From contig JAVZCB010000005.1 of assembly GCA_038874595.1 (NCBI GenBank), positions 1-64,000 of the forward strand: a DNA stretch of 64,000 bases. The letters are read 5' to 3'. A program made the translations under genes and the position numbers. Under the pieces are notes generated by a model. It was not told the origin of the DNA. It did not search any database and saw only the letters and a program-made list of their open reading frames with translations. This DNA is from Candidatus Micrarchaeia archaeon. GTDB lineage: Archaea > Micrarchaeota > Micrarchaeia > CAILAH01. Below, one piece after another: positions 6,296 to 48,998 of this stretch (its first letter is position 1; each line of letters begins with the position of its first letter).

Positions 6296-6352
6296 GGGAA
6301 CATTATATTTATAAGTGTTTACGATGATGTATGCGTATCTAAAGGTGGTTAG
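6296..6352 (+). promoter_or_regulatory. Putative TATA box and SD for 6353-7027, in a divergent intergenic region shared with 4534-6240
   Basis: TTTATAAG at 6308-6315; AGGTGG ending 4 nt before the ATG at 6353. Confidence 0.55.
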
Positions 6353-7027
6353 ATGAAGAAGGTGCATATAATATTAGCCCTCATACTAATGCTTGGTATA
6401 GGGCTTTTGGCGGCAATACAGCCGGCAAACGGGTGGAATGTTATTTCAACAGGTAGATATGCTACCCCTACTGTACAGGCAAACCACACAACACAGGGTG
6501 GAAACGTTACCAATATGGACTTGAGCCAGAATAGGTCAACCACAAAGTGGGCTGGCTACTGGGGTAACGTGAGTGGAATAATATTCCTCAGCCCGGCAAC
6601 TGCTGTGTTTTACAAATGGGTGTGGGCACCTGCAAACGGTGGTGTAGTATGCGCTGTTGCTGCACCAAGCGGATTTGACTGGAGCGGAGTACAAAGTGTT
6701 GTTGCAAGTGCAATTGATACAATATGGAATTTTGGAACTGCAACAGACAATGCTGCAAACACACTGACCCAGGCAACATGCAACGTCAATATTGGCGGCA
6801 CGAGCGTAACCTCAATCGGTAACAGGACAGGTGTTGGCGGGTTTGAAACTTGTGCGGTTGCAGATAATGCGGCACCGGCTGCAAAGAGTGACCTTGCATT
6901 CTGTGTTAATGTAAGTGGTGCTGGCAACCTGTTCAACGGCCAGACCGGTAACTATGAGCTGCTCGTCCCAACCAACAAGACGATAGGTGCAACTGAGACC
7001 TACTACTTCTGGATGGAGATGAGATAA
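6353..7027 (+). CDS. Small secreted stand-alone GGN-W family domain protein; candidate major filament subunit
   Basis: 224 aa. Signal peptide; Ala/Thr/Gly/Asn-rich and beta-strand-like; 4 Cys conserved in the two C-terminal-domain paralogues; ends ETYYFWMEMR; no TM anchor. Confidence 0.8.
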   Translation: MKKVHIILALILMLGIGLLAAIQPANGWNVISTGRYATPTVQANHTTQGGNVTNMDLSQNRSTTKWAGYWGNVSGIIFLSPATAVFYKWVWAPANGGVVCAVAAPSGFDWSGVQSVVASAIDTIWNFGTATDNAANTLTQATCNVNIGGTSVTSIGNRTGVGGFETCAVADNAAPAAKSDLAFCVNVSGAGNLFNGQTGNYELLVPTNKTIGATETYYFWMEMR

Positions 7028-7037
7028 AAAAGAAGAT

Positions 7038-7070
7038 TTAATTTTTCTTTTTCTGCTTTTGGTTTTGCAA
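7038..7070 (+). terminator. T-rich archaeal-type terminator after 6353-7027
   Basis: ttaatttttctttttctgcttttggttttg between convergent genes. Confidence 0.45.
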
Positions 7071-7071
7071 T

Positions 7072-11396: not shown

Positions 11397-14213
11397 TTAC
11401 CTTAAACCAAAGTATAGGTAATACGTTTCCAGCTGCCCTGCACCATACGCAACTGGAAGGATAATCTCAAAATCAGCTGGCACACCATTGAATGCTGTGC
11501 CTGTTGAATTTACATTTGTGCAAAAGAGCAGATTATTCTTTTGAGGCTGAAGCTTTGTCTTAATTATACAAGTAACGAAGCCTCCCGCTGAACCTGTATC
11601 TGCATAGTAGCAGTTTGTTATGTTCCTGTTGTTTATAGTTATATTGCAGCCTGGCTGCCTAAATGTATTTGAACCTGAGTCAGAAACACTTCCAAAACCC
11701 CATGCAAAATCAATATCTGCTCCTGAAGCACCACGCGCAGAACCTGATAACAAAGAACTGTTTGTTGTAGCACACACAACTCCTCCATCTGCAGCATTCC
11801 AAGACCAACGGTAAACATAATTTGTTATGTCGCCCATAGCACTTGTAAGATATATCTCATTAGTTATGCTACCATAAAGTGCTGCCCACCTGTCTGTAAG
11901 TATGCTTGAACTTAGGTTAAGATCACTTATATTACCTCCCTCTATTTTTATATTGCTGCTTATAATATCGCCTTTCCACCTTTCAAGATTTGTTATGTTC
12001 GTAGCATTTGTATGGAATAGATTTATCGGCGTGCCATTAAAAGCATCCAATACAATAAAAGTATCATTTGCAGTAAGCGTCGTAAATCCCAACTTGGAAC
12101 AGGTAACATTGTATGTGTGATCATCCGGCTGTGTGACATTTATTAACCTAATGTATATGTTTGTGCTTTCAGACATTGTGTATGTGCTACCATTAAAAAG
12201 TGTCAAAATACATGTTGCTCCGCTTATATGTGAGCTGTCAGTTGAATTTGAATAATTGGCTGTGAATGTAATTGTCTGGTTTGAGTATTTTGGGCCGTTA
12301 TTATATATTATCAGATTGGCATTTCCACCATACGCATATCCTGAAAAAGATGCAGCATCAAATAAAAGAATGCCCCCACTACATTTTAAGTTTGAGCAAA
12401 CAGACGGAGGGCATGTGCTCCCACTGGAAGAGATCGTTGATTTTGATATATGAAAATTATCTGCATAAATAAGATTAGTTCTAGTAAAAGAGGCACAATC
12501 GTTAACATACAACTTAACCTTTGACAACGTATTCATTGAAGGCAATTCATCTGAATCAAGAGAAACAAAATCTGGGCGCAAGAAAACTGTCCTACTATTA
12601 GATAATACCCCGTTCGCTGAGCTTATTGAAGGATAATTGATTATGCCTACGCTTTGATTATACCCATAAGTAACATTTGAAATTTCTGCATTTGCATTTG
12701 CAAGAGAAATAAACGTTGACGCGTTTGAATCATAAATAGACATATTATAAAGCTTCACCCCTGAAAGGGCATTCTTTGTTGTGTTAATCTTTACCAAAAA
12801 AAGTTCTGCATTCCCAGAAACTGAGGAATACCCACTCCCAACATAGTTCCCCTCTTTATCAACTGCTACAGAGCTTAAAAAGCTTGAAACACCCATAAGA
12901 TTTCTCCAGTGCCACAAGAGATTTCCGTTAGAGGTTACTTTTATAATGCTCTGTTCAAGGGTGCTTGGGATATAATCATAGCCGGCGATTAGGTAATTGT
13001 TATCCTGATCAACTTTAATATTAGTAAGTGAATCAAACCCTGAACTTGGGTTATACTTCCATACCCATAGCGTTTCACCTTCTGGTGAAATTTTAACAAC
13101 AATCCATTGAGCATTGCCGGGCGTGTAATCATATCCAACAGCAATGTAATTGTTATCTTGATCAACTGTTATGGAATTAAGCGTATCATATCCAGAGCTT
13201 GGATTATATGTCCAATTCCATATTTGTGTTCCAGAAGGGGAGAATTTAAAGACCCTCCATCTCATATTTCCAAGTGCATTATCATACCCGGCAAATACGT
13301 AGTTTCCGTCATGATCAACAGCAACGCTGGTCAAATAATCTGAAGTTGTACTCGGGTTATGTGTCCAACTCCATATTAAACTTCCAGAAGAGGATATCTT
13401 CACAGCCCGAAACTCTAAGTTACCCGGAGCATTATCAATGCCTACTGCAATGTAATTGTTTTCATTATCTACAGCAACCGCTGCAAATCTGTCAGAACCA
13501 CTGCTCGGGTTCTGTGCCCAGCTCCATATGAGCTCTCCCTCCGAAGATATTTTTACCATCCTAAGCTCGTTGTTACCAGGTATGGTATCATAACCAACTG
13601 CAATATAATTGCCTTCTCGGTCAACATCAACATAAACTAAAGAATCATCCCCACTGCTTGGATTAAGCGTCCAGTTCCAAATGCCGGTACCTTTTGGAGA
13701 AAACTTGGACACTAAAAACCTATTATTTCCTAAGCTACCATCATAACCTGCTACTACGTAATTATTGTCCTGGTCAGCACTTACTGAAAAATATATATCA
13801 CTTAGTGAGCTGGGATTGGTTATATAATACCAACTGACATTCCTTGTGTTTTCATTTATGTCAAAAATGCTTATCGCATTGCCAAAATTTTTCAAAACCC
13901 CATTCTTAACAATCGTCCCACTATAACGACTAAAAATTGCATTTCCCAAACCAGTATTACTAATGACTGATCCATTAAGGTCTATCTGGATGTTGCTTTT
14001 GTTAACTACAAATAATGAATATGGGGAGATAGTTGTAAAGTCGCCCTTGCATAATACTACATCATCTATTACATAGAAGGATTTCCCGCTAGTGGAAATA
14101 TTAACCAACTTTCCACTCCACGTATTAGCATTATTTAAATCAACACACGTGGGATAAATACTGGCTATTGCTATAATGTTAAGTAGCAATATAACCAAAC
14201 TACCCCTACACAT
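11397..14213 (-). CDS. Large secreted protein: beta-helix-like segment, 7-repeat beta-propeller, Ig-like domain and C-terminal GGN-W family domain; candidate tip adhesin
   Basis: 938 aa. Signal peptide; seven ~51-aa repeats; C-terminal ~205 aa aligns with 6353-7027 and 48370-48998; no TM anchor. Confidence 0.8.
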   Translation of the reverse strand: MCRGSLVILLLNIIAIASIYPTCVDLNNANTWSGKLVNISTSGKSFYVIDDVVLCKGDFTTISPYSLFVVNKSNIQIDLNGSVISNTGLGNAIFSRYSGTIVKNGVLKNFGNAISIFDINENTRNVSWYYITNPSSLSDIYFSVSADQDNNYVVAGYDGSLGNNRFLVSKFSPKGTGIWNWTLNPSSGDDSLVYVDVDREGNYIAVGYDTIPGNNELRMVKISSEGELIWSWAQNPSSGSDRFAAVAVDNENNYIAVGIDNAPGNLEFRAVKISSSGSLIWSWTHNPSTTSDYLTSVAVDHDGNYVFAGYDNALGNMRWRVFKFSPSGTQIWNWTYNPSSGYDTLNSITVDQDNNYIAVGYDYTPGNAQWIVVKISPEGETLWVWKYNPSSGFDSLTNIKVDQDNNYLIAGYDYIPSTLEQSIIKVTSNGNLLWHWRNLMGVSSFLSSVAVDKEGNYVGSGYSSVSGNAELFLVKINTTKNALSGVKLYNMSIYDSNASTFISLANANAEISNVTYGYNQSVGIINYPSISSANGVLSNSRTVFLRPDFVSLDSDELPSMNTLSKVKLYVNDCASFTRTNLIYADNFHISKSTISSSGSTCPPSVCSNLKCSGGILLFDAASFSGYAYGGNANLIIYNNGPKYSNQTITFTANYSNSTDSSHISGATCILTLFNGSTYTMSESTNIYIRLINVTQPDDHTYNVTCSKLGFTTLTANDTFIVLDAFNGTPINLFHTNATNITNLERWKGDIISSNIKIEGGNISDLNLSSSILTDRWAALYGSITNEIYLTSAMGDITNYVYRWSWNAADGGVVCATTNSSLLSGSARGASGADIDFAWGFGSVSDSGSNTFRQPGCNITINNRNITNCYYADTGSAGGFVTCIIKTKLQPQKNNLLFCTNVNSTGTAFNGVPADFEIILPVAYGAGQLETYYLYFGLR
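12780..13832 (-). repeat. Seven ~51-aa (153-bp) beta-propeller blade repeats
   Basis: Consensus WxWxxNPSSGxDxLxSVxVDxDxNYIxVGYDxxPGNxxxxVxKISxxGxxI, read seven times in the translation. Confidence 0.9.
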
Positions 14214-46862: not shown

Positions 46863-48998
46863 ATGGAATTAAAGTGGGTGCTACTATCCTTTATGTTTAT
46901 CTTATCGCTCATGGTTATTGTAAATGCTGCAGATTGTCCTACACCTATAAGCGCCCCGGGCACGTATGTTATGAGTGAAGATTATGCTGGCGCGCCTTAT
47001 AGTGATCCGATTGTGGATGGAAAAGCGTGTGTAAAAATCACTTCAAGTGATGTCATATTTGACTGCAACAACCACTATATACACAACAATGGAACTGCTG
47101 GATTAACTTATGGTATTCTGGTTGTCAGCAATTTACCAGTAACAAACGTAACAATAAAAAATTGCCGCGGGATTTATGATTATACCGATGGGATATATTT
47201 TCACGAAACACAAAACTCGCGAATTGAAAAAGTAGTTTCAAATAATAACGGTAATGGTTTTGTGGTTAATGGTGGCCAAAACAATACTATTTTCAATAAC
47301 ACTGTGCACTCAAACGAATATGGGATTTCAATATTGAGCTCATCGAAGAATATTGTTGAGAAAAATTACATATATTCACAAAAAGAAGGGGTGATTATAA
47401 CCCTCTCAACAAAAAACACAGTCAAGGATAATAAAATCTATAATAACGTAATTAATGGGATATCCCTAACTTTGTTATCTATGTATAACAACCTCACAGG
47501 AAACACACTTGAGAACAATGGGATACGGGGAGTATATGCAGAACTTGCCTCACACCACAACTATGTCTACAATAATTCAGCAAAAGGAGGGACATGGGGA
47601 TTTAGGTTTACCTCTTCCGGTAATACCACGCTTATAAAAAACACTGCTAGTGAAAGCATAGTAGGATTTCTTGTTGAGCAAAGCGAGAACTGCACCCTAA
47701 AAAACAACATTGCCATAAGAAATTCTGATACTGGTTTTGCGGTGGGACAACTATCACACAGGACAAAGATGGAAAACAACACTGGCTATGGCTCGGATAA
47801 TGGGCTTTATATTGATACAAGCAATAATGTGGTTGTTGACACGTTTACCACATACAACAACGATTTGTACGGGATATATATACTAGATTCTTACGGGGCG
47901 CAGATTAAAAACGTGCACGTGTACAACAGCTCAACAGAGTTCTATGCAGAGTCAGGAGGTGTTACAACTTCCATTAGTGTTACAAACATCACGATAGATA
48001 ATCCAAACGGCGGGTTTGTCAACAAGACGGTCCTTAACATATTTGATACCATAAATAACGGTGAAGAGCTTGCAATTAAGTGGGTGAGGAACACATATCC
48101 CCTACCACCCGGCAAATCTTCGTTTGAAGGCAAGTTCCTTAATATTAGCGGCGTTGCATCCATAAACAAGATAGAATGGCTCTGGACGCTGAGTGAATCC
48201 AGCGGGTACGATGAGGAATCGTTTGAGCTCGCAAAATATAGCGGCTCGGGATGGTCACGCGTAAGTGCAACTCTTGATATTGTACTGCATAAAATGACTG
48301 TGTACAATTTACTGCCTGCGAGCATATACGGGATTCTTGGTAATGGTAGCACACTAAACTACACAATTGCGGACATATACCGCGCAAACGTAACAAACAG
48401 GACAAGCCTGGCAAGATGGAGTGGTACTGGCGAGGCAGGGAGGGCAAATATTGAAGGAGGCAACATCAGCGACCTGAACTTAAGCTCAAGAACACTTACA
48501 GACAGATGGGCTGCTTTCTATGGTGATATTGTAGGTAGTATTTATCTTACAACCAATGCAGGAGGCCTTTCTAATTATGTTTATATGTGGAACTGGGCGC
48601 CTGCATACGGTGGTACTGTATGCGCATCAACTAATTCATCGATGTTAAGCATAAATGTGACAGGCGCAAGCGGCAGGGATGTTGATGGTGCGTGGGGTTT
48701 TGGGGATGCGGCTGATAACGGGAGGAACACGTTTGTCGGGCTAGGGTGTGATATCTTGCTTGGAAGCGCAAACGTAACCGGTGCGGACTTTGCAGACACT
48801 GGTGCAGCTGGTGGTTTCAGGACGTGTGCACTCAAGACAAAAAAATCCCCTTCAAAAAGCAATATGCTGTTTTGTACGCGTATAGATGCAAATGGTGCGG
48901 CCTTTGATAATACACCTGCAAACTTTGAGATTATTGTTCCTACTGCTTTTGGTAATGGTGTGTTTGAGACATACTATTTCTATGCTGCTTTTGATTAA
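46863..48998 (+). CDS. Secreted parallel beta-helix (NosD/PbH1-like) protein with C-terminal GGN-W family domain; candidate tip adhesin
   Basis: 711 aa. Signal peptide; many GIxLxxSxxNxIxNN-type repeats; C-terminal domain (48370-48998) aligns with 11397-12020 and 6353-7027. Confidence 0.82.
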   Translation: MELKWVLLSFMFILSLMVIVNAADCPTPISAPGTYVMSEDYAGAPYSDPIVDGKACVKITSSDVIFDCNNHYIHNNGTAGLTYGILVVSNLPVTNVTIKNCRGIYDYTDGIYFHETQNSRIEKVVSNNNGNGFVVNGGQNNTIFNNTVHSNEYGISILSSSKNIVEKNYIYSQKEGVIITLSTKNTVKDNKIYNNVINGISLTLLSMYNNLTGNTLENNGIRGVYAELASHHNYVYNNSAKGGTWGFRFTSSGNTTLIKNTASESIVGFLVEQSENCTLKNNIAIRNSDTGFAVGQLSHRTKMENNTGYGSDNGLYIDTSNNVVVDTFTTYNNDLYGIYILDSYGAQIKNVHVYNSSTEFYAESGGVTTSISVTNITIDNPNGGFVNKTVLNIFDTINNGEELAIKWVRNTYPLPPGKSSFEGKFLNISGVASINKIEWLWTLSESSGYDEESFELAKYSGSGWSRVSATLDIVLHKMTVYNLLPASIYGILGNGSTLNYTIADIYRANVTNRTSLARWSGTGEAGRANIEGGNISDLNLSSRTLTDRWAAFYGDIVGSIYLTTNAGGLSNYVYMWNWAPAYGGTVCASTNSSMLSINVTGASGRDVDGAWGFGDAADNGRNTFVGLGCDILLGSANVTGADFADTGAAGGFRTCALKTKKSPSKSNMLFCTRIDANGAAFDNTPANFEIIVPTAFGNGVFETYYFYAAFD

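Follow-up and report, generated by a model that had tools for sequence, protein, structure and literature searches.

Gene 6353-7027 raises the question of why a small exported archaeal protein shares its domain with a membrane-anchored neighbor and with larger exported proteins, and whether that shared domain lets these proteins join one another at the cell surface. The gene lies in a window of 64,000 nucleotides (contig C5:1-64000) of a genome (918 kb, 93.5% complete) that was searched as a whole. A first-pass annotation of the locus had proposed that the protein is likely the major subunit of a filament in which, as in TasA-type fibers, an N-terminal segment is passed as a donor β-strand, from tip to shaft to anchor. 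Here we report that the gene product is an undescribed archaeal extracellular module in free-standing form, and we weigh how that module may assemble.

The subunit gene and its product

The residues directly after the invariant Ala21 of the product (IQPA) are kept in the alignment of orthologs, and its C-terminus is free and conserved (YYFW.E.). The interval between signal peptide and GGN, put at about 27 residues in the first-pass annotation, measures 27–28 residues, with GGN starting at residue 49 (nt 6497). Three of the seven sequons (N44, N51 and N60) lie in the arm, the region ahead of the β-rich core. The TATA box, Shine-Dalgarno motif and T-rich terminator that had been listed for the gene were all seen by direct reading of the sequence (Table 1), and the T-rich tail is common to the subunit gene and a convergent superoxide dismutase gene. 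The genes flanking the locus are ordinary archaeal genes, RadA and superoxide dismutase among them.

Two familiar kinds of pilus were considered and rejected. Because its leader is a classical Sec leader, ending in Ala and followed by polar residues, the subunit is not an archaeal type IV pilin or archaellin with a class III signal peptide. A chaperone-usher pilus is rejected on the neighboring genes, which encode a CWB2-like transmembrane protein, an anchor and a subtilase giant, and on the archaeal host. The label "major subunit" finds no support for this copy, because its codon bias gives no sign of high expression (ENC at the 44th percentile).

Table 1. Coordinates of the subunit gene, its parts and signals, and related or neighboring genes in the window
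Feature	Coordinates	Strand	Basis and remarks
Subtilase-domain gene (Peptidase_S8), cut by contig end	2..2335	-	Domain match
Anchor, 692 aa	2387..4465	+	Family domain directly after signal peptide; GGN at nt 2459
Accessory protein, 568 aa	4534..6240	-	Signal peptide, CWB2-like repeats, Ig/CARDB-like domains, C-terminal TM helix
TATA-like box TTTATAA	6308..6314	+	39–45 nt 5' of start codon; direct reading
Shine-Dalgarno-like motif GGTGG	6344..6348	+	4 nt before ATG; direct reading
Stand-alone family subunit	6353..7027	+	224 aa; Sec signal peptide; 7 N-glycosylation sequons
Signal peptide, residues 1–21	6353..6415	+	Ortholog alignment
Pre-GGN segment, residues 22–48, with R34-Y35 motif	6416..6496	+	Absent in anchor-type proteins; unplaced by AlphaFold
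GGN strand, residues 49–58	6497..6526	+	Most conserved stretch of the family; unplaced by AlphaFold
β-rich core, residues 63–224, about 10 strands	6539..7024	+	Ortholog alignment, AlphaFold, covariation
T-rich 44-bp intergenic tail, candidate archaeal oligo-T terminator	7028..7071	+	Direct reading
Passenger 1, 938 aa	11397..14213	-	Propeller-like delta-60 repeats, then C-terminal family domain
Passenger 2, 711 aa	46863..48998	+	Parallel β-helix (NosD-like), then C-terminal family domain

Relatives of the subunit within the window

The window holds four copies of a domain of about 200 residues, which align at 25–33% pairwise identity. In the anchor GGN begins at residue 25, and the family domain is followed by a CARDB domain, a Cys-rich DUF7107 region, CarboxypepD_reg-like domains and three C-terminal TM helices. 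The family domain of passenger 1 spans approximately 11400-12083 (or 11397-12083), with its pre-GGN segment at 11942-12010; that of passenger 2 spans 48303-48995, with the segment at 48387-48455. These results bear out two earlier readings: both passengers carry an equivalent of the subunit's segment, with R-[YW] exactly 12 residues before GGN in all three unanchored proteins, and the anchor is without it, its GGN following the signal peptide directly. The C-terminal domains of the passengers are 41% identical to a stand-alone paralog encoded on another contig (C2) of the genome versus 32–33% to the window subunit, and both passengers may belong to, and assemble with, the C2 cassette. Passenger 1 has a GC3 in the lowest 5% of the long ORFs of the genome, which suggests recent acquisition or fast turnover.

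The accessory protein is encoded between the anchor and the subunit. A profile of 17 accessory orthologs matches the CWB2 region of the Clostridioides difficile S-layer protein (7ACX, E 1.2e-5), and Pfam CW_binding_2 matches 6 of the 17. The CWB2-like repeats are a bacterial cell-wall-binding module, found here in an archaeal membrane protein. Residues 317–360 also give a weak NCBIfam row to the archaellum stator ArlF (E 3.8e-5). The accessory is a membrane-anchored protein, possibly glycan-binding, and may serve as an assembly or tethering factor.

Residues 367–778 of the subtilase match the first 412 residues of a protein of 2,875 aa from another genome (L034 339-8966) at 84% identity. Since this full-length relative ends in a C-terminal family domain, and its gene adjoins a subunit/accessory/anchor cassette, gene 2-2335 probably encodes the N-terminal part of a further giant passenger. 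The same relative makes a role as maturation protease unlikely.

Distribution of the arm across the family

Searches with the stand-alone protein returned 87 near-length homologs in a 90%-clustered database, the close ones annotated as Candidatus Micrarchaeota, Anstonellales or Bilamarchaeaceae, which places the host among the DPANN archaea. Among Micrarchaeota the identity is 50–84%, which is high for a surface protein and which we count in favor of the chaining model given below. An exhaustive search yielded 559 cluster representatives at E up to 0.001. We collected 280 proteins: 179 stand-alone proteins (approximately 215–260 aa), 53 C-terminal fusions (domain within 15 residues of the C-terminus, in proteins of up to 5,626 aa) and 48 anchor orthologs.

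The first-pass annotation had staked its proposal on the anchor orthologs consistently lacking the strand. All 48 lack the pre-GGN segment; in each the leader is followed within 3–5 residues by TEGGNVT. The segment is likewise absent from every protein with an N-terminal family domain (N-domain protein) found downstream of the accessory gene in other lineages, and from the N-domain proteins of the second locus of the genome, Iainarchaeum, Nanoarchaeota and Methanoperedens. The C-terminal fusions keep it in 53 of 53 cases, with the consensus LYGANVTNVT...R[YWF], then AGN..TEGGN, and of the 159 family sequences with the [RK][YWF] motif, 127 have it 11–12 residues ahead of GGN. Family-wide conservation is highest in the GGN strand (0.65), intermediate in the core (0.50) and lowest in the pre-GGN segment (0.39). 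Judged from the alignments, the pattern of presence and absence is more than chance and amounts to a phylum-spanning rule.

Only N-domain (anchor-type) proteins extend past the domain on its C-terminal side, and only unanchored ones on its N-terminal side. This topology agrees with modules that all face the membrane in one orientation, the anchor being at the base. Natural tandem domains, which would make a built-in dimer, were found in none of the 280 proteins. At one locus (L036:16386-17729, G083:C34) two stand-alone genes, 44% identical, stand in tandem in the same frame with one TGA and 33 nt between them, and loci of Woesearchaeota and Pacearchaeota hold up to four tandem subunit copies (L115).

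Pfam and NCBIfam scans of the subunit gave no family match. With hmmscan against Pfam-A at E up to 1 there was only a chance row to PGM1_C, and a profile search against PDB sequences at E up to 10 gave 0 matches. Our literature searches found no description of the family.

A conserved cassette in DPANN archaea and Methanoperedens

The genome carries eight copies of the domain, including those of a second paralogous cassette outside the window (C2:76877-109530). That cassette encodes a 224-aa stand-alone paralog with strong codon bias (ENC at the 2nd percentile), a 579-aa accessory paralog, and a 528-aa N-domain protein without TM helix in which the family domain again comes right after the leader, along with exported proteins of 567 and 640 aa and giants of 2,818 and 4,861 aa. 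A third subfamily of the domain forms the C-termini of the 4,861-aa protein (C2:94945-109530) and of a 604-aa protein (C4:126741-128555); it has a Cys- and Trp-rich segment in place of the GGN arm.

The subunit gene adjoins an accessory ortholog in 16 of 16 loci from other Micrarchaeota genomes. An anchor-type gene lies beside the pair in 13 of these 16, and giant proteins with the C-terminal domain are often adjacent. The distribution within the phylum is patchy, with the family present in 35 of the 151 genomes of the phylum sample. A scan of species-representative genomes gave 186 loci, from Micrarchaeota, Iainarchaeum/Diapherotrites, Woesearchaeota, Pacearchaeota, Nanoarchaeota/Nanobdellota and Methanoperedens/Methanosarcinales, and an accessory gene lies at most 3 kb from a family gene in 39 of the 79 loci kept from the wider scan. 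In Iainarchaeum, Nanoarchaeota and Methanoperedens the genes again follow one another as subunit, accessory, N-domain protein. In these other lineages the N-domain protein begins at GGN (GGY in Methanoperedens) and the subunit has 22–30 extra residues. The cassette is syntenic from Micrarchaeota to Woesearchaeota, Nanoarchaeota and Methanoperedens. Three loci in Methanoperedens/Methanosarcinales MAGs (L086, L096 and L119) place it outside DPANN, with GGN changed to GGY, which may reflect gene transfer, mis-binning or ancient presence; because Asn is replaced by Tyr there, glycosylation of the GGN Asn is not the universal reason for the motif.

Predicted fold and covariation

The subunit was modeled as a single chain with AlphaFold2 from 46 orthologs (mean pLDDT 79), and an ESM Atlas model is of similar quality. 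The core (residues 63–224) forms 10 strands, mostly above pLDDT 90 after residue 91; the first core strands (63–90) are at about 70 and residues 25–62 below 50. The model of the anchor N-domain, from 48 orthologs, has a pLDDT of 86, with 95–98 over residues 41–210, and residues 20–35, which hold the GGN strand, are again below 50. AlphaFold usually leaves unsatisfied donor strands unplaced, and we count in favor of chaining that the cores are confident and the conserved arm is unplaced in both the stand-alone protein and the anchor. Folding of the segment within its own subunit was the outcome named beforehand as speaking against the donor-strand proposal; single-chain prediction, a weak probe of this, leaves residues 25–62 out of the fold.

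In all N-domain proteins about 8–10 extra residues follow the third core strand, modeled as a hairpin (65–68, 71–74). Because of this extra hairpin, and because the anchor core has a pLDDT of about 97 versus about 70 in the matching part of the subunit, the models suggest that the anchor could complete its own sheet, with a self-sufficient fold rather than an open acceptor. It also keeps a candidate donor element, since the invariant GGN strand at its N-terminus is unplaced. The description of the anchor as an acceptor-only terminator is therefore unproven, and the models allow that the exchanged element may be larger than was proposed and its polarity reversed.

Fold searches returned no convincing relative with either model. 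For the subunit all Foldseek rows had E > 0.4, and the VIA-align wide search (48,161 representative PDB chains) gave a best Z of 3.5. For the anchor the best Foldseek rows were to polyomavirus VP1 and cohesins (E 0.015–0.13, TM approximately 0.1), with a best VIA-align wide Z of 3.3. No thread, TasA, AbpA, CanA or pilin chain was listed with either model. In so far as the models are right, the fold appears new.

Mean-field DCA (mfDCA) was run on 241 aligned family sequences (effective number 221; 24,310 pairs). The two inferred disulfides served as a control: the Cys pairs C143-C167 and C100-C184 come 3rd and 13th in the ranking. Three ladders involve the arm: residues 31–34 of the pre-GGN segment with 52–56, at modest ranks of 37–240 among the 24,310 pairs; residues 45–48 with 64–69, at ranks 16, 19 and 26; and residues 54–57 of the GGN strand with 98–102, in core strand 97–102, at ranks 24–243. 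The pairs R35-T64 (rank 11) and Y36-S62 (rank 33) add to these. The predicted strand order is pre-GGN, GGN, core, as read from couplings in which contacts within a subunit and contacts with a neighbor look alike. With this order the GGN strand of the anchor would be an exposed N-terminal edge, and a free GGN edge is the geometry required for the addition of a neighbor's pre-GGN strand. The connecting loops (8 and 6–7 residues) are long enough that the arm-core contacts could also form within one chain.

Proposed assembly through the arm

In the reading that we find explains these observations best, the module comprises an N-terminal arm of about 40 residues, made up of the pre-GGN strand with its R/K-aromatic motif and then the invariant GG-x-[VI]-T strand, and behind it a β-rich core of about 165 residues. 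The cassette provides the subunit, the membrane-anchored CWB2-like protein and a stalk-tip module protein, the last membrane-anchored in the window locus. Modules would join head to tail via the arm: the pre-GGN strand of each subunit would add to the sheet edge that the GGN strand forms in the neighbor one step closer to the membrane. The anchor, sitting at the base, would then need no pre-GGN strand; stand-alone subunits would lengthen the chain; and passengers (β-helix, propeller and subtilase giants) would join via the same module at their C-termini and so be displayed at the cell surface.

We infer the contacts between subunits, the direction of donation and a fiber as the product on comparative and predictive grounds. 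On this basis, assembly mediated by the arm in one polarity or the other has about an even chance of being right, and the specific scheme, a head-to-tail chain with the proposed polarity and a basal anchor, is tentative and falls appreciably short of that. Also counted for chaining are the three architectures of one module (stand-alone, C-terminal fusion and N-terminal anchor), the rule of arm presence and absence, the adjacency of stand-alone and accessory genes, and the covariation of the arm. Counted against it are the position of the pre-GGN segment as the least conserved part of the module, its modest DCA ranks, and the closer relation of the passengers to the C2 paralog. As for the donor-strand polarity proposed at first, the absence of the segment from anchors and the edge geometry implied by covariation speak for it, and the GGN strand, left unplaced in the anchor too, speaks against it.

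The alternative that survives best, though we consider it unlikely, is that the arm folds in cis, residues 22–62 wrapping one edge of their own β-sandwich, and that anchor-type proteins swapped this outer strand for an internal hairpin during divergence. Association, if any, would then occur via other surfaces, in a two-dimensional envelope lattice or small stalked oligomers with a CWB2-like tether. The ladders seen by covariation are local, and as hairpins of a single chain they would be sterically feasible; the N-domain proteins do have the extra 8–10 residues and a core that is very confident without the arm, and the resemblance of the accessory to the CWB2 part of an S-layer protein would suit a lattice. 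It would also suit this alternative that no canonical S-layer N-domain (PF05123, S_layer_N) was detected in the protein or the genome, but that search is uninformative, as the model matches only 5 of the 151 genomes of the phylum. Against folding in cis, a simple local hairpin was left unplaced in two independent AlphaFold models despite their confident cores, at about 21 kDa the subunit would be a small S-layer protein, and the strict cross-phylum rule of presence and absence would be left as a coincidence of subfamily divergence.

Strand exchange might instead run in the opposite polarity or involve a larger swapped element, with the GGN strand or the whole arm as donor; we regard this as distinctly improbable. 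Here a self-complete anchor, acting as a donor-only nucleator, would supply the first free subunit with the GGN strand from the anchor N-terminus; TapA (PMC10151520) and the proposed cap Saci_0405 (PMC9715654) are precedents. No element of the family is more conserved than the GGN strand, which stands at the mature N-terminus of every anchor and is unplaced there while the remaining domain is at pLDDT 95–98; it co-varies with core strand 97–102, and the first core strands of the stand-alone protein are at only about 70. The evidence for this scheme comes from pLDDT and covariation. The scheme accounts neither for what the pre-GGN segment does nor for why anchors in particular have lost it, and the most distal subunit would have an unsatisfied arm while attached to a huge passenger.

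Least probable of all, and very unlikely in our judgment, is that the pre-GGN segment serves as a cis cap or propeptide, covering the GGN edge until it is cut off near GGN, so that all classes come to share the N-terminus of the anchor and passengers are released or held non-covalently. Anchors do begin 3–5 residues before GGN, where such a cut would fall, a double glycine marks the junction, the loci also encode subtilase domains, and the segment is the least conserved part of the module. But the subtilase, most likely ending in a family domain, would itself be a passenger, the cut would detach passengers from their sole recognizable attachment module, and the R/K-aromatic motif has a fixed spacing and co-varies with residues 62–64.

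Chaining through the arm thus remains our preferred reading. Its broadest form is a widespread, undescribed archaeal surface-polymer system with a new fold, found in DPANN archaea and Methanoperedens, in which arm exchange chains subunits from a stalked base protein and attaches giant adhesins or enzymes, and a CWB2-like protein is the assembly or tethering factor; we put this somewhat below an even chance. If true, many ultrasmall archaea would use it as their attachment apparatus, to present the proteins that contact the host. How DPANN archaea attach to hosts, and how giant proteins without recognizable lipid anchors are held at the cell, is largely unknown, and the family is a specific candidate that can be put to the test. 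It combines a single small, conserved subunit with a cassette of three genes kept in several archaeal phyla, a confidently predicted fold without PDB counterpart, and, in the presence or absence of the arm, a simple sequence rule that predicts the order of assembly.

Comparison with known systems

By analogy, the functionally closest systems are chaperone-free donor-strand polymers, membership in any of these families being unsupported by sequence. The nearest parallel is the thread of Sulfolobus acidocaldarius (Saci_0406), for which strand donation was shown by cryo-EM and for which Saci_0405, with a donor strand but no acceptor site, is the proposed cap (PMC9715654). As in the threads, the subunit described here is a β-rich, heavily N-glycosylated protein of no Pfam family, made with a Sec signal peptide rather than as a type IV pilin, and has conserved residues right after the cleavage site: IQPA..W and the R/K-aromatic motif follow the Sec leader in 46 orthologs. 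Both systems also encode in the same cluster a paralog without one of the two complementation elements. They differ in that our searches gave no PDB sequence or fold match to the threads and strand donation is here a prediction, and in that the variant paralog is stalked (membrane-anchored in the window locus) and accompanied by a CWB2-like protein and giant passenger fusions.

TasA fibers of Bacillus subtilis, with their nucleator TapA, polymerize outside the cell without a chaperone; each subunit completes its neighbor's sheet with an N-terminal strand, and a dedicated partner starts the chain (PMC9674648, PMC10151520). Archaeal relatives are the AbpA bundling pili (PMC9245690) and the CanA cannulae (10.1101/2024.12.30.630787). 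A polymer of this design, with its own chain-starting partner, is what we propose for the window system. As to the likeness to TasA-type fibers put forward in the first-pass annotation, sequence and fold searches listed no similarity to TasA-type or any solved filament subunit, with no match to the TasA/camelysin family (Peptidase_M73) in Pfam at E up to 1 and none among the structure-search rows; the gene neighborhood is different, and the module here is also a C-terminal tag on giant proteins. The Pam pili (PamA/PamB) of ultrasmall CPR episymbionts, thin donor-strand-exchange filaments built of unannotated lineage-specific proteins, offer an analogous biology in their ultrasmall lifestyle, but they are bacterial, reported as exclusive to CPR, made of Ig-like pilins and served by the chaperone-like PamC/D (PMC13278184).

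Two further systems resemble parts of the cassette. The CWB2 triad of C. difficile SlpA (7ACX/7ACY) compares with the accessory protein only, through the profile match to its CWB2 region; the archaeal host has neither peptidoglycan nor PSII polymer, and the accessory has its own C-terminal TM anchor and Ig-like spacers. In the cohesin-dockerin pairs of cellulosomes, to which Foldseek gave only weak rows for cohesins (E 0.03–0.13, TM approximately 0.1), one shared module likewise attaches diverse large extracellular proteins to a cell-anchored scaffold, but in the present family the same domain is found on both partners and also as a stand-alone copy.
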